A DNA stretch of 64,000 nucleotides, taken from Clostridiales bacterium (GTDB taxonomy: Bacteria > Bacillota > Clostridia > Christensenellales > CAG-314). Each line of letters begins with the position of its first letter. Positions within the stretch are counted from its first letter, which is position 1. Below are positions 6,884 to 64,000 of this stretch, in pieces. A program made the position numbers and the translations under genes. The stretch spans positions 292,371-356,370 of the forward strand of contig JAFLVK010000001.1 in assembly GCA_022508345.1 (NCBI GenBank), written 5' to 3'. The notes under the pieces were generated by a model, which saw only the letters and a list, made by a program, of their open reading frames with translations, did no database searches and was not told where the DNA came from.

Positions 6884-6934
6884 AGCAAAAAATTGGTTAT
6901 AAGCAATCCTCTTTTTAATAAATGTCGGCGACGC

Positions 6935-7969
6935 TTATACGCCCTTCAACAGTAATACGGTGAAGGTGCTGCCCTCACCAAGCTTACTGTCCACAAATAT
7001 TGTGCCGTCCAGCAGCTCCACAATTTTTTGAACAATGCTGAGACCCAAGCCGTTGCCGGGCGTAGTGTGCGACTTGTCCCCTTGGAAAAATTTGTTGAAA
7101 ATGTTAGCTTTGGTTTCTTCGTCCATGCCGCAGCCTGTGTCCTGCACTTCTATCACGGCATTTAGCCCCATGGAGCGGCATTTTACCGTTATTTTTCCGC
7201 CCTCATCAGTAAACTTTACAGCGTTGGACAGCAAATTTACAATTACCTGGCTTAGCAGCTTGTAGTTACTGTTGAGCTTGATTGGTTCCAGTTCAATGTC
7301 CAAATCAATGCCCTTGCTTTCGCACTGCTGCTGAAACATAAGCACACATTGGCGAATTTGCTCGTCCAACAGGTACTGCTCCTTGGTGATTTCCTGGCTG
7401 TCCAGCCTGTTTAGCAACAGCACGCTTTCGGACAGCTCGACAAGTCGGTTGGATTCGTCGATGATTACGTCAAGAAATTCGTTGCGCTGCTCGGGTGAGA
7501 GGCTGGGGTCCTTCAACAGCTTGGCAAAGCCGGATATGGAAACGATAGGCGTCTTGAACTCGTGTGAGAAATCGGACACAAAGTTTTCGCGCAAGGTTTC
7601 AACGCTGTCCAATTGGGAAACCATATGATTGAAGTTCTTGGCTAAGCCGAGATTGGCAAACACCTTGCTGTCCTCAATGCGGATGGAGAAGTCGCCCTCC
7701 GCCACCTTTTGCAGTGCGTTTAGGTAAGGTCTGCTTGCGCGCACTATTATTGCCGAATAGGCAAAGGACAGCGCCACACCCAATACGGTGCTTATGGCAA
7801 GGGTGATTACAGCAAACAGCAGAATGTTGTTTTCGGCAATGCCCGTTTCCGCTGCGATAAGTGATGACAGACCGAATGTAATGACCATAGTGAGGGTTAG
7901 CATCACAAACAGACACAGTACTACAATTAACGTGATTCGGCTAAAAATGTTTCTCTTTCTTTTACTCAT
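6935..7969 (-). CDS. Sensor histidine kinase (HAMP-HisKA-HATPase)
   Basis: Two N-terminal TM segments, H-box FVSDFSHEFKTPI, and G-boxes DTGCGM and GNGLGLSIV. Confidence 0.9.
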   Translation of the reverse strand: MSKRKRNIFSRITLIVVLCLFVMLTLTMVITFGLSSLIAAETGIAENNILLFAVITLAISTVLGVALSFAYSAIIVRASRPYLNALQKVAEGDFSIRIEDSKVFANLGLAKNFNHMVSQLDSVETLRENFVSDFSHEFKTPIVSISGFAKLLKDPSLSPEQRNEFLDVIIDESNRLVELSESVLLLNRLDSQEITKEQYLLDEQIRQCVLMFQQQCESKGIDLDIELEPIKLNSNYKLLSQVIVNLLSNAVKFTDEGGKITVKCRSMGLNAVIEVQDTGCGMDEETKANIFNKFFQGDKSHTTPGNGLGLSIVQKIVELLDGTIFVDSKLGEGSTFTVLLLKGV

Positions 7970-9734: not shown

Positions 9735-9792
9735 AAAAAATTGCACCCCAGGAGTTGAAAACAACTTTTGGGGTGCTTTTTTACAGGAGCCT
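9735..9792. terminator. Bidirectional rho-independent terminator
   Basis: gcacccca-N28-tggggtgc flanked by an A-run and a T-run. Lies between the XRE remnant (+) and the ABC exporter (-). Confidence 0.7.
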
Positions 9793-9834
9793 TTTTTTGC
9801 AAAGCGAAGCCGTTTTGGGCAGAATACCCGAGCC

Positions 9835-11790
9835 TTAACTTAACTCAAACATTCCAGTGTAAAGCTGATAATATTTACCGCGCTGTTTGATTAGGTCGTC
9901 GTGATTGCCGCGTTCGATAATTACACCGTGCTCCAGCACCATGATAGCATCACTGTTGCGAACGGTGGACAAACGGTGCGCGATAACAAATGTTGTGCGA
10001 CCCTCCATCAGCGCATCCATACCCTTTTCAATGAGCCATTCGGTACGGGTGTCGATGCTGCTTGTCGCTTCGTCGAGAATGAGTACCGGCGGATCGGCTA
10101 CCGCTGCGCGCGCAATTGCCAGCAGCTGACGTTGCCCCTGCGATAGGTTTTCACCGTCGCGTGTGAGCATGGTTTGGTAGCCCTCGGGCAAGTGCATGAT
10201 AAACTGGTGCGCATTTGCCGACTTAGCCGCTTCGATACATTCCTCGTCCGTTGCGTCAAGGCGCCCGTAACGAATGTTGTCCATGACGGTGCCCGTGAAC
10301 AGGTGCGTGTCCTGAAGCACCATTGCCAGCGACCTGCGCAAATCGGCTTTCTTGATTTTGTTGATGTTGATACCGTCGTAGCGAATCTTGCCGTCGGGTA
10401 CGTCGTAGAAACGGTTGATAAGGTTGGTAATTGTAGTTTTGCCTGCGCCCGTCGAACCGACGAAAGCAATCTTTTGCCCGGGGTGCGCAAAGAGCGACAC
10501 ATTGTGCAAAACCGTCTTGTTTTCCTCGTAGCCGAATGTCACATTTTCGAAACGCACATCGCCTTTCAGTTCGGTGTAGGTTACCGTGCCGTCAGTGTGC
10601 GGGTGCTTCCACGCCCAACGTCCTGTGCGCGTTTCGCTTTCCGTGATGTTGCCCTCCTCGTCGATGTTGGCGTAAACCAGCGTTACGTAACCATCGTCCA
10701 CCTCTACAGGGGTGTCCATGAGCGCAAATACGCGTTCGCCGCCTGCAACTGCCATGAACAGCAGGTTGATTTGCTGAGCAATTTGCTGAATGGGCATGGT
10801 AATGTTGCGGATATAAAGCAAAAATACGGCAATGATACCAACGTAATCTAACGGGTTTTTGCGCGTTGTTGTAACTGCGATAACCGCACCGATAACGGCA
10901 ATACCTGCGTAGAAGAAATGCGACAGGTTGTTCATTATCGGTCCCATGATGTTAGCGTAGCTGTTGGCGCGCGTTGACACTTCCTGCCAATGGGTGTTGA
11001 TTTTGGCAAATTCCGCGATAGATTTGTCTTCGTGATTGAATGCCTTTACAACCTTTTGCCCCTCGGTCATCTCTTCGATGTAGCCGTTGAGCTTACCCAC
11101 TGCTGCCTGTTGCGCTACAAAGTTTGTCTTGGAGCGGCCACCGATAAACTTCACTATCAAAAACATCAGTACAAGCATGCCAACCATTACAAGTGACAGT
11201 TCCCAGCTCTTTATAAACATGATTACGAACACGCCTGTGATGGTTATCGTACTGCTGATAAATTGCGGAATACAGCGCGCGATAAACTCGTTCATCATGT
11301 CGATGTCGTTGGTGTAGCGGGTCATCAGTTCGCCGTGCGTGGTTGTGTCGAACACCTTGATGGGCAGCTGTTGCATGTGTTGGAACAAATCGGTACGCAG
11401 CTTTTTCATTGTGGAGGTTGATATACCGATAAGTATGCGGTTGAGCGCGTAGTTGACTGCAAGCACAACAATGTAGATTGCCGCAATCAATGCCACCATT
11501 ATGAACAGGTAGCTCATTTTGTTGCCTATATCTGGGCTCAATGCAAGATTGTCCAACGCCGCAATGCCCGTCAAGCTTACGTCGCTATCTGCGGTTGCCG
11601 CCAAGCCTTTTAGCAGCGGGTCCAACAGTGACGTTGCAAAAATGTTGGCAATCGACTGGGTAATGATACACAGTATAACTGCAATCATCCTGCCCTTGTA
11701 GGGTTTGAGATAACTGATCAAACGGAACATTGTTCCCTTGAGATTTTTGGGTTTTTGCGCACCCATTGCTCTTCTGTTAGGTCCCGGCAT
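9835..11790 (-). CDS. ABC exporter, fused permease/ATPase (heterodimer partner 2)
   Basis: Six-TM domain, Walker A GSTGAGKTT, signature LSQGQRQ and Walker B ILILDEATS. Confidence 0.92.
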   Translation of the reverse strand: MPGPNRRAMGAQKPKNLKGTMFRLISYLKPYKGRMIAVILCIITQSIANIFATSLLDPLLKGLAATADSDVSLTGIAALDNLALSPDIGNKMSYLFIMVALIAAIYIVVLAVNYALNRILIGISTSTMKKLRTDLFQHMQQLPIKVFDTTTHGELMTRYTNDIDMMNEFIARCIPQFISSTITITGVFVIMFIKSWELSLVMVGMLVLMFLIVKFIGGRSKTNFVAQQAAVGKLNGYIEEMTEGQKVVKAFNHEDKSIAEFAKINTHWQEVSTRANSYANIMGPIMNNLSHFFYAGIAVIGAVIAVTTTRKNPLDYVGIIAVFLLYIRNITMPIQQIAQQINLLFMAVAGGERVFALMDTPVEVDDGYVTLVYANIDEEGNITESETRTGRWAWKHPHTDGTVTYTELKGDVRFENVTFGYEENKTVLHNVSLFAHPGQKIAFVGSTGAGKTTITNLINRFYDVPDGKIRYDGININKIKKADLRRSLAMVLQDTHLFTGTVMDNIRYGRLDATDEECIEAAKSANAHQFIMHLPEGYQTMLTRDGENLSQGQRQLLAIARAAVADPPVLILDEATSSIDTRTEWLIEKGMDALMEGRTTFVIAHRLSTVRNSDAIMVLEHGVIIERGNHDDLIKQRGKYYQLYTGMFELS

Positions 11791-13807: not shown

Positions 13808-13929
13808 AGTGAGGGGTTAGAAGCGAGCAAGACGAGGCAAACGAGCATTTCCAAGGGAGCGTACTAGGCGTACGTGACCGCAGGAAAGCGGAGTTTAACA
13901 AAGTATTGCGACGCTTATAAGCCATCACT
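13808..13929. repeat. Structured repeat, copy A (overlaps the dnaE stop codon)
   Basis: Shares the blocks TTAGA, GGAGYGTACTA, GCGTACRTGAC and AACAAAGYAT with copies B and C. Terminal arms AGTGAGGGGTTA / TAAGCCATCACT. Confidence 0.8.
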
Positions 13930-17464: not shown

Positions 17465-18403
17465 TTACCTTCTTGCAATGTCTATAAGCTTGGCGAAACG
17501 GTGGTTTGCCCCACTCTTGGAGATGCTGAGCATGTCGGCAATTTCGTCCAGGTTTGCCTCGGGATATTTTTCGCGTAGTTGCGCTATTTCTTTCAGGCTG
17601 TCGGGCAGTCCGTCAAACAAGCCCTTTTGTTTGATTGCGGCAATGGCATCAAGCTGTCGGGCTGCTGCGGCAACCGTTTTGCCGATGTTTGCCACGGTGC
17701 AGTTGGTTTGCCTGTTCAAATTGTTGCGGAGGCTACGTGCTGCAATCACGTTTTCCAGCCTGAGCTTGGCTGACATGGCGTTGACGTACACCAAGAAGTC
17801 GGCAACGCTTTCGCTATCCTTCAAATAAAGCACAACGTGGTTTTTGCGCTGCGTAACGCGGAATTTCAATTCGGGATACTGCTCGTTTACCTTTTCCGCA
17901 AAGGCGTTATCCGTCAGGCGAAGCTCCAAGTGGTATTTGGCATTGTCTGCCACGTCGCTATCCAGGTCGTCATTTTGCGGAATAACAACCGAACCGCCCG
18001 CAACAAACAACCCCTGTAAAAATGCCCGTCTGCAACAGGGCTTTTCTGGGAAAATCGACTGCATTTGTCCAAAAATCAACGCGCCGTCTTCGTCGCGCGC
18101 AATGAGCGTTAGCTTTTCGCCAAGCGACTTGTCGAAAGTGCAGCTGTATATGGGCACACCCTTTTTGTTGTTGCCCTCCGCTTCAATATCCGCCTGTACG
18201 CCAAGCTCACCCAGTGCAAGGCTTTGACATATTGTCAGGAAATCAACATTGTCGCTTTCCAAAGTAAACGAAAAACCGTTGAGCCCCAGCGTCAAGGAGC
18301 CGGCACTTTTCAAAACAGCAGTCAAAAAGGAGGTGGCGCAGCACCCCTTTAAGTTTCTGACAGTTTTCAATATTTCGTTTTTAACACTTTGCGAAAAGGT
18401 CAT
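17465..18403 (-). CDS. whiA: DNA-binding protein WhiA
   Basis: 312 aa. MTFSQSVKNEI start, LAGLIDADG-like core and a C-terminal HTH (LDEIADMLSISKSGANHR). Confidence 0.9.
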   Translation of the reverse strand: MTFSQSVKNEILKTVRNLKGCCATSFLTAVLKSAGSLTLGLNGFSFTLESDNVDFLTICQSLALGELGVQADIEAEGNNKKGVPIYSCTFDKSLGEKLTLIARDEDGALIFGQMQSIFPEKPCCRRAFLQGLFVAGGSVVIPQNDDLDSDVADNAKYHLELRLTDNAFAEKVNEQYPELKFRVTQRKNHVVLYLKDSESVADFLVYVNAMSAKLRLENVIAARSLRNNLNRQTNCTVANIGKTVAAAARQLDAIAAIKQKGLFDGLPDSLKEIAQLREKYPEANLDEIADMLSISKSGANHRFAKLIDIARR

Positions 18404-29345: not shown

Positions 29346-29921
29346 TTAGTTGTCAAATGATATGCGAAGCTTTGCCCTGCGGTTGAGTACAACCAGTGGC
29401 AAAAACGCCACCGCAAACAGTACAACATTGCACACTATCTGTGTGATGTAGAAGCTGCCTCCGCTAACGTACATCACGGCAAAGCGGTGGAAGTAGTTGT
29501 CCAAGTCAACAAAGAAGCCCTTGCCTGTGTAGCCCACAAGCGTATCCACGGCGGACGTTACCACGCCGAACAATGTTGTGAGCACTGCCGCGGTGAGCGT
29601 GGCTACTGTTATCTCCACGCCCTTGTGCTTGAAGCAAGCTTTGCCCAGCAGCCAAAAGGCAAGCGCAACCGTGTTCCAGTGAATGAGGTAGGATATAACC
29701 CAAGTGTTTACACCCCATATAGCCACGTCCACTACAATAAATACGTTGACGGCAGGGAACACCACCACAGCCCCCCACACATATGCGCACAAGGCTATCA
29801 GTAGCGTTACCACTTCGATGTTGGGCAGTACCGCAAGCGCTTGCTTTCCGCCGACAATGAGAGCAGCGTACATTGCGCTAACGGCAATGAGCAAAGCGTT
29901 GTATTTAGTTTTTTGTTTCAT
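29346..29921 (-). CDS. Small polytopic membrane protein, ECF S-component-like (CbrT-like candidate)
   Basis: 191 aa, about 6 TM. 1-nt overlap (TAATG) with the upstream DUF4430 gene. Lies downstream of a cobalamin riboswitch. Confidence 0.45.
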   Translation of the reverse strand: MKQKTKYNALLIAVSAMYAALIVGGKQALAVLPNIEVVTLLIALCAYVWGAVVVFPAVNVFIVVDVAIWGVNTWVISYLIHWNTVALAFWLLGKACFKHKGVEITVATLTAAVLTTLFGVVTSAVDTLVGYTGKGFFVDLDNYFHRFAVMYVSGGSFYITQIVCNVVLFAVAFLPLVVLNRRAKLRISFDN

Positions 29922-30430
29922 TACCAGGTTTGAATTTCGAAGTAAATGATTGCGCCGTTTTCAACGGACATTCCGCTAACGCCGTACTGTGAGTAACCTA
30001 CGGTAACGTCGCCAATCAAATAAGCGGTTGCACTAGCACCCACGCCTTGGTCCTTTTCCACACTGGTGTAAACAGCTACGTATTCGTGTGCGTCAGCGTT
30101 CGGCTGAAGTCCGCCGATGTCGTTGAGCCACTTGCCCGTGTCGCTGTCCGTCCAATCGACAGTTAGCATATCCTGTTGTACAAGGTAGCTGATTACTCCC
30201 TCCACCGTGGTCGCATCCGTGCCGCTACCACCCAGCGTAACTATGTGCGCCGTGTAGGTGTTGTTTCTGTTTTTGATTATGACAGCCATTTGATTGTCCT
30301 TCATTTCGGGAAGCGTTAACTCGGTTAACTCCACCGTCTGAGGCTTGTCAACACATGCGACAAGAGCAACAGTTGAAACAACCAACACAGCTACCAAAAT
30401 CCACGTCAGTAGTCTTTTTGTGTTTTTCAT
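29921..30430 (-). CDS. DUF4430-type lipoprotein (transcobalamin beta-domain-like)
   Basis: Lipobox ALVAC. GVISYLVQQDMLTVDWTDSDTGKWLNDIGGL resembles DUF4430. Confidence 0.65.
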   Translation of the reverse strand: MKNTKRLLTWILVAVLVVSTVALVACVDKPQTVELTELTLPEMKDNQMAVIIKNRNNTYTAHIVTLGGSGTDATTVEGVISYLVQQDMLTVDWTDSDTGKWLNDIGGLQPNADAHEYVAVYTSVEKDQGVGASATAYLIGDVTVGYSQYGVSGMSVENGAIIYFEIQTW

Positions 30431-30490: not shown

Positions 30491-30619
30491 GTTTGAGACG
30501 ATTAGAAACGAGATAGGCGCGACGCGCAAGGCTTTTGCGAGGGAGTGTACTAAAGCGTACATGACCGAGCAAAATACGAAGCGCAACAAAGCATATCGAT
30601 GTTTATAACCGTCTCAAAC
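30491..30619. repeat. Structured repeat, copy B (inside the riboswitch leader)
   Basis: Perfect arms GTTTGAGACG / CGTCTCAAAC. Internal blocks TTAGA, GGAGTGTACTA, GCGTACATGAC and AACAAAGCAT. Confidence 0.8.
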
Positions 30620-30750
30620 GGTTGGGCGTTCGGACTTGTTCCTCACCTTGGCAACAGGCAAGGCTTTACCGTAGCGGGACTGTCAATGAATTTCACATTG
30701 TTTCCCCGTAAATGCGCACTGCTTGCGCAACCCGTAGTTATATGCGGTTG
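30618..30750 (-). promoter_or_regulatory. Cobalamin (B12) riboswitch aptamer
   Basis: The minus strand reads GGGGAAACAAUGUGAAAUUCAUUGACAGUCCCGCUACGGUAAAG (conserved core) and AAGUCCGAACGCCC (B12-box-like). Confidence 0.75.
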
Positions 30751-43261: not shown

Positions 43262-43310
43262 TATTCTTCCTGTTAGATGTTTTTTATTAACAATTTAAAT
43301 ATACCGAAAT

Positions 43311-43435
43311 ATTGAGGTGGTTAGATGCGAGCAAGACGAGGCGCGCGAGGAAAACTCGAAGGAGTGTACTAAGCGTACATGACTGAAAGTTGCCACAGCG
43401 CAACAAAGTATTGCGACGCATATCACCGCCTCAAT
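43311..43435. repeat. Structured repeat, copy C (overlaps the prfB stop codon)
   Basis: Arms ATTGAGGTGGT / ACCGCCTCAAT. Internal blocks as in copies A and B. Confidence 0.8.
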
Positions 43436-44525
43436 AAAGTTTCTGTAGGTAATCTTCGATAAAGGGCTGAATATTGCCGTCCATGACGTCTTCGACGTTG
43501 GAGTTTTCAAAGCCCGTGCGGTGATCCTTGACAAGCGTGTAGGGACAGAACACGTAGGAGCGAATTTGGCTACCCCATTCTATCTTTTTTATCTCGCCCT
43601 TCAACGACATCGCTTCTTCCATTTGTTCGCGCTCCTTGAGCTCCGCCAGCTTGCCGCGCAGCATGTTCATTGCCTGTTCGCGGTTTTGTATTTGACTGCG
43701 TTCGTTTTGGCAGGCAACCACAATACCTGTGGGCAGGTGCGTAATGCGAATTGCGCTTTCCGTCTTGTTGACGTGCTGTCCGCCTGCACCGCTACTACGA
43801 TAGGTGTCGATTTTCAAGTCCTTGTCTTCAATTACAATTTCGTTGTCCTGTACCAATTCCGGCATAACCTCAAGGGAGGCAAAGCTGGTGTGCCTGCGCT
43901 TGTTGGAGTCGAACGGAGAAATACGCACCAAACGGTGAACGCCCTTTTCCGCTTTCAAGTAGCCGTAGGCGTTGGTGCCGTTCACCTGGAAGGTTACCGA
44001 CTTGATACCTGCCTCTTCGCCGTCAAGATAGTCCAGCACAGCAAGCTTGTAACCGCGACGTTCGCAGTAGCGCGTGTACATTCGGTAAAGCATTGACACC
44101 CAGTCCTGCGCTTCCGTACCGCCTGCACCCGCATGTAGGGTAAGTATTGCGTTATTTGCATCGAACTTGCCGGACAGCAGGGTTGCGATACGCATTTCGT
44201 TTACCTGGGCGCTGATTTGTGCAAGCTCCGATGCCGTTTCCTCCAGCATGGCTTCGTCACCGTCGCACATAGCAAACAGCTCGGTAACGTCATTTAAGCG
44301 CTTGCTGAGCTTGGCGTAGCTGTTGATCTTGTCCTCGATGTTGCTGGCGCGCTGGCTTACCTGTTGGGCGTTTTTCACGTCATCCCAAAAATCGGGCTTG
44401 TGCTGCTGTTCAACAAGGGCTTGTAACTCGCTTTGCAGCTTTGGAATGTTAAGGCTTTCACCAATACCCGCAAGCTTGGTTTGCAAATCCTTAATATTTA
44501 GTTTTAGTTCCTCAATTTGTATCAT
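43431..44525 (-). CDS. prfB: Peptide chain release factor 2 (single ORF, no frameshift)
   Basis: 364 aa. SPF tripeptide in RISPFDS, GGQ in SGAGGQHVN. The N-terminus is continuous through the usual frameshift position. Confidence 0.95.
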   Translation of the reverse strand: MIQIEELKLNIKDLQTKLAGIGESLNIPKLQSELQALVEQQHKPDFWDDVKNAQQVSQRASNIEDKINSYAKLSKRLNDVTELFAMCDGDEAMLEETASELAQISAQVNEMRIATLLSGKFDANNAILTLHAGAGGTEAQDWVSMLYRMYTRYCERRGYKLAVLDYLDGEEAGIKSVTFQVNGTNAYGYLKAEKGVHRLVRISPFDSNKRRHTSFASLEVMPELVQDNEIVIEDKDLKIDTYRSSGAGGQHVNKTESAIRITHLPTGIVVACQNERSQIQNREQAMNMLRGKLAELKEREQMEEAMSLKGEIKKIEWGSQIRSYVFCPYTLVKDHRTGFENSNVEDVMDGNIQPFIEDYLQKLY

Positions 44526-47317
44526 TTCTTGTTCTTTTCTAATTTTCTTTGTTGACGCTTCAAGGCGTATTCTTCCTGTTTGGTCAGCGGTCTGTCGCCC
44601 TGTGCTTGCTCATTAGCAGCTGATTGCTCACCCTGCTTCTCTTGGTCTTTCGCGTAGCAACAGTTTTTGTATTTCTTTCCGCTACCGCAGGGGCAAGGTC
44701 CGTTTAACTTCTTTTCGGTGTTGATGGGTTCGTCGGGAGCAGTGTTGACCTTCAAGGTGTGAACGATACGCGCAAACGTCAGCATGCGCAAGGTTTGTAC
44801 CTTGATTTGCTCGTTGAGGTTTTCGAACATGTCGTAAGCTTCCTTTTTGTAAACGATGATGGGATCATGCTGACCTATTGCCTGCAAGCCAACGCCCTTG
44901 CGCAAATCGTCCAAAGCGTCGATGTGATCCATCCAAAGGTTGTCCAAAGTGCGCAGCAGTACGAAACGCTCCGCTTCACGGAAGGGAACCACACTGCCTG
45001 TAGGGTCCTCCGCAACTCTCTCGTCGAAGTACTCCTTTGCACGCTCGGACAGCATATCGCACACCTGGCGTGCGCTTTTTACGTTGTCCTCGGTCAATAT
45101 CGGTTGCTCAAAGGTAAAGTATTCGCCAAGCTTTTTGTTAACCTTGTCAAGGTTCCATTCGTCCACGTTTTCGTTGCTGTCGCATGCCTCGGCAAGAGCG
45201 TAGCGCGCGTAGTCGTCCACCATTGCAATGATGTCGGTGTGAACGTCCTCGTTGTCCAGTATTCTGTCACGTTCCTTGTAGATAACCTTGCGTTGCTGGT
45301 TGTTTACGTCGTCGTATTGCAGCACGTTTTTACGGCTGGAGAAATGCAAGCTTTCGATACGCTTTTGCGCCGTTTCGATAACCTTGGAGAGCACTTTGCC
45401 TTCCATTGGCGTGTCCTCGTCCACATTCATAAACATCATGGCGCGTTGCAGCATATCCTTGCCGAATACGCGCACCATGTCGTCATCTGCGGATATGAAG
45501 AACATGCTGCAGCCCGGGTCACCCTGTCTGCCTGCACGTCCGCGCAACTGATTGTCGATACGGCGTGAATCGTGCCTTTCGGTACCTATTACGCACAGTC
45601 CGCCTGCGGCAAGCACCTTTTCCTTTTCGGCGTCCGTTTCCTTTTTGAAAGCCTGAACATGGGTTTTGAAAATTTGTTGCAGCTTCTCTATTTCGGGGTC
45701 GCCCGTGACAAAGCTTGTGGAAGCCTCGATTTGTTCGTCGTCGTAGCCGTCACGTGCCATTGCTTGCTTTGCCAAAAATTCGGGGTTACCGCCCAACAAA
45801 ATATCCGTACCGCGGCCTGCCATGTTGGTGGCAATTGTTACCGCGCCGAAACGTCCTGCCTGAGCGACAATTTCCGCCTCGCGCTTGTGGTACTTGGCGT
45901 TGAGCACCTGGTGCTTGACCCCGGCAAGCTTCAGCAGCTTGCTCAGTTCTTCGCTCTTTTCCACTGTGATGGTGCCGACAAGTACAGGCTGACCTACCTT
46001 GTTGCGTTCTACAATTTCCTCCACTATTGCCTTGAGCTTGCCCTGCCTGTTGAGGTAAATGATGTCGGGCATGTCGTTCCTTATCATGGGAAGATTTGTG
46101 GGGATAACAACAACGTCAATGTTGTAAATTGTGTTAAATTCCTGTTCTTCCGTTTTGGCAGTACCTGTCATACCGCTGAGCTTGTGATACAGGCGGAAAT
46201 AGTTTTGGAAAGTAATTGTTGCAAGGGTTTTGTTTTCTTCCTTAATGGTGACGTGTTCCTTTGCTTCAATTGCCTGGTGCAGTCCCGCACTAAAACGGCG
46301 ACCTTCCATTTTACGTCCCGTGAAGGAATCGACAATGAGGATTTGCCCCTTTTCCACGATGTAGTCGTCGTCGCGGTGCATGATAGCGTGCGCTTTCAAC
46401 GCATTGTTAATGTAGTGGTTGAGCTCGGTGTTTTCGGGTGAGGACAGGTTGTCCAGCTTGAAGAACCGCTCCGCCTTGACAACACCCTTGTCGGACAGGC
46501 GCACCGATTTGTGCTTTTGGTCCACGATGTAGTCGCCGTCCGGTTCATCGTCGTTTTCCGTCTTGCCCTCTTCATCCACATTGGTGGAGTTGCGAAGTGT
46601 GCATACAAAGGTGTTTGCGGTGATGTACATATCGCTGGATTTGCCGCTGGGTCCCGAAATAATCAAGGGTGTGCGCGCTTCGTCGATAAGAATGCTGTCC
46701 ACCTCGTCGATAATGGCGAAGTTGAGCTCGCGCTGCACGCGACTTGCCCTGCTTGTTGCCATGTTGTCACGCAGGTAGTCGAAGCCGAATTCGTTGTTGG
46801 TACCGTAGGTGATGTCGCAAGCATATGCCTGGCGTTTTTCCTTGGCTGATTGCTTGTTGAGCGTAACGCCGACGGTAAGCCCCAGGAAGCGGAATATCTT
46901 GCCCATCCACTCCATATCACGGGTTGCAAGATATTCGTTGACGGTGACGATGTGTACGCCCTTGCCCGTCAAAGCGTTGAGGTAAGCCGGCAGCGTTTCG
47001 GTAAGAGTTTTACCCTCACCTGTTGCCATCTGGCATATACGCCCTTGGTGAAGAGCAATACCGCCCATTACCTGAACGTCGAAGTGGCGTTGGTTCAACA
47101 CACGCTTGCCCGCTTCACGGCACACCGCAAAGGCATCGGGAAGCAGCTCGTCCAGTGTTTCGCCGTTAGCGTACCTGTCGCGGAGAACCTGCGTCTGTTC
47201 GCGCAGCTCCTCGTCGGACATAACGGAATACTTCGGCTCTTTGTCCGAAACCAGCTTGGCTATTTTACTTAGTTTCTTAACTTGGCGAGCATTTGCTCTA
47301 CCGTAGTTTTCTTTCAT
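44522..47317 (-). CDS. secA: Preprotein translocase ATPase SecA
   Basis: 931 aa. MATGEGKTL Walker A, DEVDSILIDEARTPLIISG, and C-terminal zinc motif CPCGSGKKYKNCC. Confidence 0.97.
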   Translation of the reverse strand: MKENYGRANARQVKKLSKIAKLVSDKEPKYSVMSDEELREQTQVLRDRYANGETLDELLPDAFAVCREAGKRVLNQRHFDVQVMGGIALHQGRICQMATGEGKTLTETLPAYLNALTGKGVHIVTVNEYLATRDMEWMGKIFRFLGLTVGVTLNKQSAKEKRQAYACDITYGTNNEFGFDYLRDNMATSRASRVQRELNFAIIDEVDSILIDEARTPLIISGPSGKSSDMYITANTFVCTLRNSTNVDEEGKTENDDEPDGDYIVDQKHKSVRLSDKGVVKAERFFKLDNLSSPENTELNHYINNALKAHAIMHRDDDYIVEKGQILIVDSFTGRKMEGRRFSAGLHQAIEAKEHVTIKEENKTLATITFQNYFRLYHKLSGMTGTAKTEEQEFNTIYNIDVVVIPTNLPMIRNDMPDIIYLNRQGKLKAIVEEIVERNKVGQPVLVGTITVEKSEELSKLLKLAGVKHQVLNAKYHKREAEIVAQAGRFGAVTIATNMAGRGTDILLGGNPEFLAKQAMARDGYDDEQIEASTSFVTGDPEIEKLQQIFKTHVQAFKKETDAEKEKVLAAGGLCVIGTERHDSRRIDNQLRGRAGRQGDPGCSMFFISADDDMVRVFGKDMLQRAMMFMNVDEDTPMEGKVLSKVIETAQKRIESLHFSSRKNVLQYDDVNNQQRKVIYKERDRILDNEDVHTDIIAMVDDYARYALAEACDSNENVDEWNLDKVNKKLGEYFTFEQPILTEDNVKSARQVCDMLSERAKEYFDERVAEDPTGSVVPFREAERFVLLRTLDNLWMDHIDALDDLRKGVGLQAIGQHDPIIVYKKEAYDMFENLNEQIKVQTLRMLTFARIVHTLKVNTAPDEPINTEKKLNGPCPCGSGKKYKNCCYAKDQEKQGEQSAANEQAQGDRPLTKQEEYALKRQQRKLEKNKK

Positions 47318-50941: not shown

Positions 50942-51105
50942 AATAAAAGCGTCCTGCCCTATGACAAGACGCAAAATCTTCCTTTCGCAGTCCCATCTGT
51001 CGGCGCTCGCCGTGCAGGCGATTGCCGCGGAATTTAGCACCTAATAAAAGATTTTTAGGTTGCTGTGGCGTCATCAAGTCCGTCTCTCGACCACTCTCGA
51101 TAGGG
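50942..51105 (-). promoter_or_regulatory. SAM-I (S-box) riboswitch with terminator
   Basis: The minus strand reads UAUCGAGAGUGGUCGAGAGACGGACUUGAUGACGCCACAGCAACC ... AGGUGCUAAAUUCC ... CAGAUGGGA. This is followed by the hairpin GCGUCUUGUC/GGCAGGACGC plus UUUUAUU. Confidence 0.88.
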
Positions 51106-51114
51106 TTACGGCTA

Positions 51115-61496: not shown

Positions 61497-61573
61497 GGCG
61501 GCGTAGCTTAGATGGTTATAGCGGCCGGTTCATACCCGGCAGGTCGTTGGTTCGAATCCGACCGCCGCTACCA
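61497..61573 (+). tRNA. tRNA with CAU anticodon (Met elongator or Ile2), CCA encoded
   Basis: Hand-folded cloverleaf. Acceptor GGCGGCG/CGCCGCT, anticodon arm GCCGG-TTCATAC-CCGGC, T arm GTTGG-TTCGAAT-CCGAC. Confidence 0.85.
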
Positions 61574-61578
61574 AACAC

Positions 61579-61653
61579 GGCTCCTTGGTCAAGCGGTCAA
61601 GACATCGCCCTTTCACGGCGGTAACACGGGTTCGATTCCCGTAGGAGTCACCA
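61579..61653 (+). tRNA. tRNA-Glu (UUC), CCA encoded
   Basis: Acceptor GGCTCCT/AGGAGTC, anticodon loop CTTTCAC, T arm ACGGG-TTCGATT-CCCGT. Confidence 0.88.
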
Positions 61654-61656
61654 TAT

Positions 61657-61732
61657 GGGGAGTTAGCTCAGTTGGGAGAGCATCTGCCTTACAAGCAGGG
61701 GGTCACAGGTTCGAGCCCTGTACTCCCCACCA
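61657..61732 (+). tRNA. tRNA-Val (UAC), CCA encoded
   Basis: Acceptor GGGGAGT/ACTCCCC, D arm GCTC-AGTTGGGA-GAGC, anticodon loop CTTACAA, T arm ACAGG-TTCGAGC-CCTGT. Confidence 0.9.
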
Positions 61733-61956: not shown

Positions 61957-64000
61957 TTATTTTATATGCTTTCTTTTCTTTAGAATAAAGAATGCAACTG
62001 CACCACCTATTGATAAACTTCCACCAACGGAGCCAACGACAATACCGACGGTTGCGGCCGTCGTGTCGCTTGGTTCGGTGGGTTCACTCGGCTCGGTAGG
62101 TTCGCTTGGTTCAGTAGGTTCACTCGGCTCAGTGGGATCGGTCGGGGTAGACGGATCAACGTAAACGGTTACCGCTTGGAAGATCATGTTACTTGTTACA
62201 GTTACCTCTTGACCAAGCGCGTATTTGGTATCACCCACTTTCCAACCCGTAAGCCTGTAGCCCTCTGCAAGTTGAATGAAGCTTGGTAGCGTTATTACCG
62301 CGCCATACTCAACAGTGATGCTGTCAATAAACTCACTACCGTTGTAATACGCAACTGTCAACTTGATTTTTTCAATCCTTGCAACAAACGTCATTGCCTT
62401 GGTGACGGATACTGTTTCACCCACTCCGTAGCACACGTCGTCGGCGTACCAACCCAAAAATTCATACCCTTGTTCAATTTGAGACAAAGACGGCATGGTG
62501 ATTGTTCCATCGTAATCCACGTACGTGACGGCAACCAAGTCACTGCCAACGCGGAACTCCACTCTTAGCGAACCTTCCTTGATGGGCAAGATTACGATAT
62601 CCTCGGCAACGTCTATTTCGTCACCCACGTCATAATAACTGCCGTTGTACTCCCACTTGATGATATTTCCGTCCACCGCACTTGATGTCGATGGGAACAC
62701 GAATGTTTCGCCCGGAGTAACGTAGATATACTCTTCTTCGTCGCCATAACGGATTGTAATTTTGTACTTTTGCCCCACTACCACTTGAATGACCGTCATG
62801 TCGTCAATAGCAATGGAGTCGCCAACGTGGTAAGTGACGCCGTTCACAACAAAAGAGATAATATACTTGTCGGGATGTGTTGCTTCAAAGTCATCTGCCG
62901 TGAAGGTGTAGGTGGAACCGTTTTCAACCAAGAAGGATTCCGCACCTATTTCATCGCCGTAATCCAGCGTCACTTTGACGCGTTTGGGCACATAGCAAAT
63001 GGTATTTCCTCTTATCTCGATGCGTCCCCTGCTTTCGTCTAAATTTAAGAAAGAAATTTCCATATCCTCAAGCGCATTCGCTGGAATGTCAAAATCTGCA
63101 GTGAAAATTACCTTTACGTAATCGAAGTCATAGCTATCAAGCGTGATATGGAAAGAGGTGTACGTTTGAGGCTGCATGGTGCCCCAATCTATCGGCCCGT
63201 AAAACGGTTGTACGGTAAACATGGCTGTAGTCAGGTGGACGGTAGCGTTTTGCGATAAGAAAATATCTCTCGTTAGTTCCGCATCGATTTTTTTACCGGT
63301 ACCGGTAGCTCCTGCAATAACGACGTTTCCGCTGTTGACGTAAAGAGAATACTTCATTTCATCTTCCGTCGGCATTGTTGCCTTAGACGCGTAATTGAAG
63401 AAGAAGTTGACGGCGAGCAGCTGCAAATTGCCACTTTCCATGTACAGTTCGTAACCTACCGGGGCGGAGTCGTTGTACAATTGAGGCCTGCCGCTAATGC
63501 TTTCCGAAGTAAATTTCAGTTCGGAATTGGCATCACCCTTGTAATAAATACCTCCACCAAGCTGCGATGCTGTGTTCAACGTAATCATAATATCTTCATG
63601 AAGTAAAGCGCTACCCTCTATAAACATTGCGGCGCCGTAGTTCGCATTGTTGTATCTTAGCGTTACATTTTGCATTTTTGTTAGTTTGGCTCCGCCAATT
63701 AATGCAATAGCCCCGCCGTATTGCGCCGTATTGTATTCCATCATCATGCGCTGGGTAAAGGATGTATTTGTATCTCCGATAATGTGCGTAATCGTTCCCT
63801 CGCATGCGATAGCCCCACCGTAAATTGAGGAAGTATTGTTCGATAGCGTTGAAAAATTGTTTATTGATGCCGACGAGGTAGTGTCGATAAATATTCCACC
63901 ACCGTTGTTCGTTGCCGTGTTGTAGTTTATTGTTGATTTGGTAAAGGTCAGCGTTGATGTATCGGCAGCATATATTCCACCGCCGTCTACCGCCGAGCAA
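61957..64000 (-). CDS. Large surface protein, 5'-partial: PMP-type repeats, Listeria-Bacteroides-type repeat domains, TEPS linker, C-terminal TM anchor
   Basis: I verified by hand that the frame stays open from 63747 to the window edge (…GGGIYAADTSTL…NNGGGIFID…IYGGAIACEG…YGGAIALIGG). GYEFLGWY and GYRLTGWK repeat domains. C-terminal hydrophobic helix plus KKRKHIK. Confidence 0.75.
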   Translation of the reverse strand, partial: CSAVDGGGIYAADTSTLTFTKSTINYNTATNNGGGIFIDTTSSASINNFSTLSNNTSSIYGGAIACEGTITHIIGDTNTSFTQRMMMEYNTAQYGGAIALIGGAKLTKMQNVTLRYNNANYGAAMFIEGSALLHEDIMITLNTASQLGGGIYYKGDANSELKFTSESISGRPQLYNDSAPVGYELYMESGNLQLLAVNFFFNYASKATMPTEDEMKYSLYVNSGNVVIAGATGTGKKIDAELTRDIFLSQNATVHLTTAMFTVQPFYGPIDWGTMQPQTYTSFHITLDSYDFDYVKVIFTADFDIPANALEDMEISFLNLDESRGRIEIRGNTICYVPKRVKVTLDYGDEIGAESFLVENGSTYTFTADDFEATHPDKYIISFVVNGVTYHVGDSIAIDDMTVIQVVVGQKYKITIRYGDEEEYIYVTPGETFVFPSTSSAVDGNIIKWEYNGSYYDVGDEIDVAEDIVILPIKEGSLRVEFRVGSDLVAVTYVDYDGTITMPSLSQIEQGYEFLGWYADDVCYGVGETVSVTKAMTFVARIEKIKLTVAYYNGSEFIDSITVEYGAVITLPSFIQLAEGYRLTGWKVGDTKYALGQEVTVTSNMIFQAVTVYVDPSTPTDPTEPSEPTEPSEPTEPSEPTEPSDTTAATVGIVVGSVGGSLSIGGAVAFFILKKRKHIK
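62068..62145 (-). repeat. Tandem 18-bp (9-bp sub-period) repeat encoding the (TEPSEP)n linker
   Basis: ggttcactcggctcggtaggttcgcttggttcagtaggttcactcggctcagtggg encodes PTDPTEPSEPTEPSEPTEPSEPTEPS. Confidence 0.85.

Follow-up and report, generated by a model that had tools for sequence, protein, structure and literature searches.

The window, the whole 64-kb stretch of DNA that was analysed, carries three copies of a long hairpin repeat, all found in one orientation with an nhmmer profile built from the repeat. Two of the copies run into the 3' ends of dnaE and prfB; the identities of DnaE and RF2 were upheld by NCBIfam models, which also define the genes for WhiA and SecA. The features concerned are as follows.

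6903-6952, + strand: decayed remnant of a fourth copy, with the gene-proximal ~45 nt alone retained
13808-13929, + strand: hairpin repeat copy A; outer-helix arms 13808-13818 and 13919-13929; covariance model score 109 bits
13925-13927, - strand: UGA stop of dnaE; plus-strand tca in the copy A 3' arm AAGCCATCACT (13919-13929), in the outermost helix
13925-17458, - strand: dnaE (1177 aa), the gene contacted by copy A
17465-18403, - strand: WhiA gene (NCBIfam model)
30491-30619, + strand: hairpin repeat copy B; covariance model score 114.1 bits; contacts no stop codon
43310-43436, + strand: hairpin repeat copy C; outer-helix arms 43310-43322 and 43424-43436; covariance model score 110.6 bits
43431-43433, - strand: UGA stop of prfB; plus-strand tca in the copy C 3' arm CACCGCCTCAA (43424-43434), in the outermost helix
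43431-44525, - strand: prfB (RF2, 364 aa, without frameshift), the gene contacted by copy C
44522-47317, - strand: SecA gene (NCBIfam model)

When the 64-kb window was searched with the covariance model, nothing real was found besides copies A, B and C (each 109-114 bits), which are 70-76% identical in pairwise comparison. On the + strand the copies form long imperfect hairpins with fold z-scores of -6 to -7.7 (for copy C, an RNA fold of -53.3 kcal/mol, z -6.8), and their mRNA-sense strands fold at -37 to -48 kcal/mol. A preliminary description had placed the UGA codons of dnaE and prfB in the outer stem of the repeat, and this proved correct, as both lie in the 3' arm of an 11-bp outer helix. 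It had also stated that neither gene is followed by a canonical stem plus U-tract terminator. A terminator scan agreed, finding none after prfB or dnaE; the sole terminator-consensus match there, at 43429-43413, is a local stem within copy C. Promoter and terminator scans round all three copies revealed no + strand promoter-like site and no real terminator after the copies on the + strand. A small + strand ORF in copy C was discarded as a candidate, being not conserved in the other copies. Across the window, TGA terminates only 10 of 42 long ORFs. The secA and prfB genes overlap in an ATGA at 44522-44525, which suggests translational coupling.

Unlike A and C, copy B does not mark the 3' end of a gene. 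It occupies the space between an AdoCbl-II riboswitch aptamer (30616-30724, minus strand, 42.6 bits), the 3' end of which it abuts, and the ORF at 30430; upstream of it are a canonical terminator and a promoter-like site. The copy puts ~190 nt between the aptamer and the RBS and ATG at 30430, and no expression-platform terminator is visible in this leader. The ORFs downstream (29921-30430 and 29346-29921) had no Pfam or NCBIfam match.

The DNA 3' of prfB was compared in seven relatives. Each line gives the source, the identity of its RF2 to that of the window, the sequence at the gene end and the state of the site.

Window: 100%, TAT TGA, filled
L070: 91%, TAT TGA, filled
L077: 92%, TAT TGA G, without element, likely a remnant (only TATTGAG kept)
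L078: 89%, TAC TAA, empty
L079: 86%, TAC TAA, empty
L071: 84%, CTT TGA, empty
L073: 80%, TAG, empty
L075: 75%, TAA, empty

The RF2 C-terminus (...EDYLQK[AL][FLY]) and the length of 364 aa are conserved in more than 100 relatives, and all 120 closest RF2 relatives are about 364 aa. In the window the RF2 ORF is uninterrupted and spans TIGR00020 end to end, so that no frameshift is needed; the missing prfB frameshift is clade-wide and unrelated to the element. The repeat had been described as starting at the end of the last gene of an operon. It does start at the ends of dnaE and prfB, but prfB is not the last gene, as in relatives without the element the next gene (DUF3737) begins 13-33 nt past the prfB stop. 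Judged from this gene order, copy C was inserted inside a prfB-DUF3737 operon.

The dnaE site was compared in the same manner, with identities given for DnaE.

Window: 100%, AAG TGA, filled
L108: 92%, AAG TGA, filled
L107: 94%, AAA TAG, empty
L109: 91%, AAG TAA, empty
HAN102 (L067): 91%, AAA TAA, empty
L110: 89%, AAA TAA, empty

Here four of five relatives are without the element, and their codon at this position is TAA or TAG. More than 100 relatives share the conserved DnaE C-terminus (...VFFEK). Given the conserved C-termini of RF2 and DnaE, the stop position is native and the protein has the same length whether the site is filled or empty. Comparison with element-free relatives, which the preliminary description had proposed, thus revealed a different stop codon (mostly TAA or TAG, 8/9) at the end of an unchanged C-terminus. 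With prfB and dnaE pooled, TGA is found at 4/4 filled and 1/9 empty sites (Fisher p about 0.007, the genomes being related). At both genes there are two filled lineages, with different subtypes, and a closer relative that is empty. Different subtypes at one site would be accounted for either by repeated insertion on the same stop or by one old insertion followed by conversion and loss. A native intrinsic terminator after dnaE is found downstream of the element in L108 and without the element in HAN102, and is absent from the window. The dnaE-associated copy in L108 (6534-6683) has an extra ~40 nt in its apical region and is followed by this terminator.

A UGA followed by a hairpin is also the hallmark of the bacterial SECIS, in which the selenoprotein ORF runs on in frame to a conserved C-terminal extension. 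This candidate was rejected: RF2 and DnaE keep their native, conserved C-termini whether or not the element is present, and the stop is UAA in other clades.

Further copies were sought by scanning one genome per species for the pattern of invariant bases, which gave 68 loci, about 60 of them genuine. The carriers are about 25 MAGs labelled Clostridia, Clostridiales, Christensenellaceae, Candidatus Gallimonas or Candidatus Scatosoma, obtained from gut samples of sheep, goat, deer, rabbit and chicken or from further gut metagenomes. A metagenome scan found copies only in the same clades, and the viral contigs, plasmids and phages scanned had none. No description of this repeat family was found in literature searches, and no Rfam 15 family matched the element on either strand, whether the whole window was searched at the gathering score or the segment 43250-43500 at E up to 10.

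Copies can be very similar within a genome. MAG SIG397 has four copies at unrelated loci that are 95-99% identical, and another MAG has two subfamilies with 89-95% identity within each and about 74% between them. For each window copy, the nearest match (83-90%) lies not in the window but in another genome, at a different locus; copy C is 90% identical to a HAN102 copy behind a histidine kinase gene, a non-orthologous locus, and orthologous flanking DNA is about 80% identical. Some copies form arrays of two to four units, with a complete unit beside the gene and degenerate units farther out. Since the duplications include the spacers as well as the units, arrays were attributed to tandem duplication, and an origin by repeated insertion at one stop was rejected. 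In about 0.5 Mb of flanking DNA there was no transposase or recurrent protein family near copies. The genes beside them are ordinary housekeeping genes, and the recurring 760-aa neighbours are HTH-cupin-AMP-binding enzymes.

The repeat unit is an imperfect hairpin of ~125 nt, composed of a terminal helix of 11-12 bp, three short inner helices and a variable apical stem. The inner helices are set apart by invariant purine bulges or mismatches (TTAGA, CGAG, AG, CG and AACAAAG). While the stems are free to vary, the invariant part consists mostly of unpaired purines together with a palindromic TTATAA box. In an alignment of 61 copies, compensatory changes were found in 23 of 30 predicted pairs; pairing holds in 90.3% of cells, as compared with 65% in shuffles and 30-40% in slid-partner controls, and the covariation score is 0.60 against 0.18. 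Pairing in the terminal helix is 94-98% at positions 6-10, falls to 55% at position 11 and is random further out. This abrupt end identifies the repeat as a unit with defined ends and not a helix growing into neighbouring sequence. An outer helix extending into coding sequence, hinted at by L004 and L067, was therefore not accepted as a general feature. No flanking motif conserved beyond the terminal helix was found, and the flanks contain no consistent direct repeat that would represent a target-site duplication (TA or longer); where TA occurs, it is one-sided and part of the stop codon. A U-tract or U-rich 3' flank is absent in most clades.

The terminal pentamers differ by clade (TTTAA, AATAA, TTGAG, GTGAG and others). 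In the clade of the window the gene-proximal arm holds its stop triplet, TGA, within TTGAGG or GTGAGG, and in lower-GC clades the triplet is TAA, within TTTTAAG, AAATAAG or TTTAAAG. The TTATAA box, ten bases inward of this arm, offers a stop in a second frame.

The two strands of the element are not equivalent. The + strand folds better, with a mean of -48.3 kcal/mol versus -37.8 kcal/mol for the mRNA-sense strand, and it is the more stable strand in 73/76 copies. Mismatches are biased in the same sense (G.U 87 vs A.C 22; G.A 56 vs C.U 23), and the conserved unpaired bases are purines on the + strand. The better-folding strand is hence the one antisense to the contacted gene, which no model considered predicts. 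The bias looks like selection on the + strand fold, since deamination of the sense strand would skew the counts the opposite way.

Such a bias would suit a multicopy gene for a + strand small RNA, antisense to gene 3' ends and overlapping the stop region of its target; the mismatch counts, the greater stability of the + strand and its conserved unpaired purines are all as expected of an RNA made from that strand. However, the window copies are preceded by no promoter-like site and followed by no terminator on the + strand, and conservation does not extend to a motif past the helix. The genes contacted are unrelated housekeeping genes, presence varies among close relatives, and Rfam holds no matching family. 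A small RNA is consequently regarded as improbable.

The position of the repeat relative to genes was assessed with ORFs called mechanically in all loci, a contact being scored when the array end lay -25 to +5 nt from a stop codon. Of 73 single copies or arrays, 45 contact the stop of a gene on the opposite strand, always with the same end (the 3' end in the + orientation of the window), and none contacts a stop with the other end or contacts a start codon. Among the 55 arrays with both flanking ORFs called, 36 contact a stop, as compared with 4.1 expected for random placement and orientation inside the same intergenic space (P about 3e-27). The preliminary description had raised the question of whether copies are enriched at stop codons, and this survey answers it in the affirmative. 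Its suggestion of an element that prefers gene 3' ends for insertion, there providing or preserving the stop, is supported by the 73 arrays, by the filled and empty sites and by the switch from TAA or TAG to TGA. On the mRNA of the contacted gene, the element is the reverse complement of the window + strand and begins at the stop codon.

The distance from the AACAAAG landmark to the first base of the stop is 11, 14, 20-22 or 25-28 nt in 43 of about 66 copies, which is a spread of 17 nt (11-28 nt). In 30 of these 43 the terminal helix or the TTATAA box of the element contains the stop, and in 13 the stop is at the edge of the element; the remaining copies are mostly inner members of arrays.

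With these numbers, chance overlap, or a regulatory device specific for RF2 and UGA, is scarcely credible. Either could be entertained from the window, which shows two cases only, one of them in the gene of the factor that reads UGA. The strength of the enrichment speaks against chance, and the embedded stop is UAA in most clades, the contacted genes are diverse and the frameshift-free RF2 of 364 aa is equally found in element-free relatives. The preliminary description had found it curious that the element sits on a prfB gene lacking the usual frameshift; the lack of a frameshift is real, but its link to the element is coincidental, as dozens of unrelated genes are contacted, with UAA elsewhere, and element-free RF2 is the same. 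RF2 autoregulation via UGA, an attractive but false lead, is thereby removed.

The polarity tracks the gene and, as judged by a crude proxy for replication direction, not the locally dominant coding strand: 32/36 contacted genes are on the majority strand, against a baseline of 91%. A replication-strand cause of the polarity was examined with this crude proxy and is unsupported, contacted genes being on the minority strand about as often as others. Nor does the supply of a stop alone explain strict polarity, because the reversed element also has T(A/G)A in its outer arm. Two loci, L013:33-346 and L061:3577-3704, are exceptions to the polarity, with the + strand as sense and no stop contacted; the element there precedes the RBS of nrdD and that of an aldo/keto reductase gene by 10-20 nt.

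The placement might instead reflect a function for the host, with the repeat acting in cis as a 3'-UTR hairpin anchored on the stop, whether by blocking 3'-exonucleases, by terminating transcription in an unconventional way or by being opened by the terminating ribosome, so that the distribution follows from the function. The repeat is necessarily co-transcribed with the gene it contacts, its mRNA-sense strand still folds strongly (the mean of -37.8 kcal/mol given above), and the window is without the intrinsic terminator that follows dnaE in HAN102 and L108. REPs, moreover, are known mRNA stabilisers, and translation is reportedly modulated by those lying about 15 nt or less from a stop. Several observations oppose this explanation. 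The antisense strand is the better-folding, wobble-tolerant one, the stop offset spans 17 nt, arrays of decaying units exist, close relatives do without the element at the same genes, and most clades have no U-tract. The preliminary description had offered an unconventional terminator as one option; this conflicts with the presence of copy C inside an operon and of copy B between an aptamer and its ORF, two sites at which termination would do harm, and with the retention of the native terminator downstream of the element in L108. Another option, remodelling of the outer helix by a terminating ribosome, is allowed by the geometry if the mRNA folds, but the offset of 11-28 nt and the better antisense fold argue against a tuned device. 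Overall, a cis-acting role in mRNA as the cause of the distribution is judged unlikely.

The geometry also resembles that of an integron-type attC, or of a different recombination site formed by a folded single strand, attached to gene ends. Such sites are imperfect hairpins of 57-141 nt that start from an ORF stop, with the structured strand antisense to the ORF and conserved extrahelical bases through which they are recognised; their stems vary freely and their copies are homogeneous within a genome. The details do not agree. The 7-bp box of the repeat, next to its outer helix, 5'-GTTAGAA...TTATAAC-3', has the reverse polarity of the attC consensus 5'-RYYYAAC...GTTRRRY-3', so the R-box consensus is lacking, and the box is itself enclosed by a further helix of 9 bp. 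No array of cassettes is present: copies in the window are 13-17 kb apart, the 'cassettes' would consist of essential chromosomal genes, and tandem units have no ORF between them. No integrase gene (intI) was seen near copies. A site of this type is accordingly held to be very improbable.

Some sites record what the element leaves behind. The remnant at 6903-6952 supplies the codons for the C-terminal residues LKGV and the TAA stop of the histidine kinase gene 6935-7969(-); MAG HAN102 carries an intact copy at its orthologous locus (L056:5557-5682). L004 has three element-encoded codons and TAA in place of the five terminal codons of the empty orthologous site (L019). A further site lies past the ABC-transporter gene 9835-11790(-), where the window has a canonical terminator hairpin (9735-9845) and HAN102 a two-unit array (L067:419-703). 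The gene ends in GAG TTA AGT TAA GG in the window and in GAA TTG AGT TGA GG in HAN102, again with TAA replaced by TGA where the site is filled, and a doubled TTRAG pentamer is present in both ends.

The closest precedent is provided by REP elements, which are found between ORFs that are unidirectional or convergent, at most 20 bp from the 3' end of the upstream ORF and at a variable distance from the next gene, and the termini of which can provide a stop codon (PMC3733652). Both the gene-end placement and the stop supply described there were found in the present repeat. As with REP, BIME and REPIN sequences, it is an interspersed hairpin repeat, such repeats occurring in tens of copies per genome, with genome-specific families and compensatory changes at paired positions. 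However, REPs are 20-40 bp long (a REPIN being a two-REP doublet) and bear a GTAG or CGTC tag, whereas this repeat is a single hairpin of ~125 nt without a tag. REPs also occur in both orientations and as inverted dimers, in contrast to the 45 to 0 polarity, the asymmetric conserved bulges and the Clostridia hosts found here. Finally, REPs are linked to a RAYT gene, a single-copy gene for a Y1 transposase flanked by REP repeats, and the roughly 0.5 Mb of loci inspected revealed no RAYT.

ERIC/IRU (127-bp imperfect palindromes of enterobacteria), and the Correia, RUP, BOX and EFAR miniature insertion sequences are comparable in size, in being long imperfect palindromes, in co-transcription and in having subfamilies. 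They differ in having TA or other target duplications and both orientations, as opposed to no duplication and strict orientation, and no sequence similarity to any of them was found. MIRU repeats (mycobacterial interspersed repetitive units) share one orientation relative to flanking genes, tandem copies in operons and overlap of the upstream stop, but they are direct repeats of 46-101 bp with small ORFs that couple stop and start, not hairpins. Rho-independent terminators likewise place a stable stem directly past a gene, but the repeat has no U-tract in most clades, occurs inside operons and in a 5' leader, and stands beside a genuine terminator in L108. As in MITEs (reviewed in PMC10969869), there are terminal inverted repeats, namely the terminal helix of 11-12 bp with its sharp boundary; unlike in MITEs, there is no target-site duplication, one orientation prevails (45 to 0) and the loci contain no longer element with the same ends.

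Taken together, the data favour, with a probability of about 0.6, a family of discrete, non-autonomous, proliferating DNA repeats of the REP/REPIN/MITE kind, located at gene stops in uncultured gut Clostridia. The family is new, and its size, bulged architecture and strict polarity mark it off within a known kind of bacterial repeat. Its anatomy, position and polarity, its presence or absence at orthologous sites, the change of stop codon and a remnant that encodes a C-terminus were observed directly. As neither a target-site duplication nor, in about 0.5 Mb of flanking DNA, a transposase or recurrent neighbour family was found, mobility is deduced from the distribution and not from a mechanism. 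The element would move as a unit and become fixed at, or a few bases from, the stop of an ORF in one polarity relative to that ORF. Its gene-proximal terminal-helix arm carries the stop triplet, TGA in the clade of the window and TAA in lower-GC clades, and if insertion took place on or just before the native stop, the protein would end at or very near its native end; the UGA codons of dnaE and prfB would thus be 'supplied' by the element. Once inserted, it is co-transcribed as a 3'-UTR or intercistronic hairpin. It can then multiply in tandem, or decay from the distal end with the gene-proximal, stop-carrying piece retained. By analogy with the REP/RAYT, IS200/IS605 and attC systems, the conserved bulges may guide recognition of the folded single-stranded form by an enzyme whose gene lies elsewhere. 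Such single-strand recognition is favoured because the + strand fold seems to be selected and yet has no + strand promoter-like site. Against the repeat family as the explanation stands the precision of its placement, a stop triplet being by itself too short for a DNA target.

A more specific version, in which a recombinase or HUH enzyme reads the bulges of folded single-stranded DNA and integrates the hairpin strand-specifically on ORF stops, with the polarity set by the gene and not by replication, is doubtful. Were homing to take place, the two lineages hit at dnaE and the two at prfB, with different subtypes, would represent real repeated targeting, and the repeat would offer a living model for how attC-like hairpins are welded to ordinary gene 3' ends, a matter that bears on the unsolved origin of integron cassettes.

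For the repeat family as such, the consequence would be that a selfish repeat writes the stops of essential genes, and at times their final few residues, in poorly known gut Clostridia. This would affect the annotation of gene ends, the prediction of operons and terminators and the comparison of MAGs. How palindromic repeats reach gene ends is a question still open for REPs, and a family this clean, with a single polarity, about two thirds of arrays on a stop and a bulged architecture without Rfam match, should be a good system in which to address it.

Other features of the window were recorded in passing. A SAM (S-box) riboswitch is located at 50990-51106 (63.5 bits), upstream of a metK homologue. 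Nearly all protein genes of the window are on the - strand, and a cluster of tRNA-Met, tRNA-Glu and tRNA-Val genes at 61497-61732 is on the + strand. Within the ORF 61957-63747(-), the product of which has a Listeria-Bacteroides repeat domain, the segment 62048-62146 shows a 9-nt periodic repeat with at least 7 registers of TCGGTGGGT-like units, which probably encodes a Pro/Thr/Glu-rich linker.
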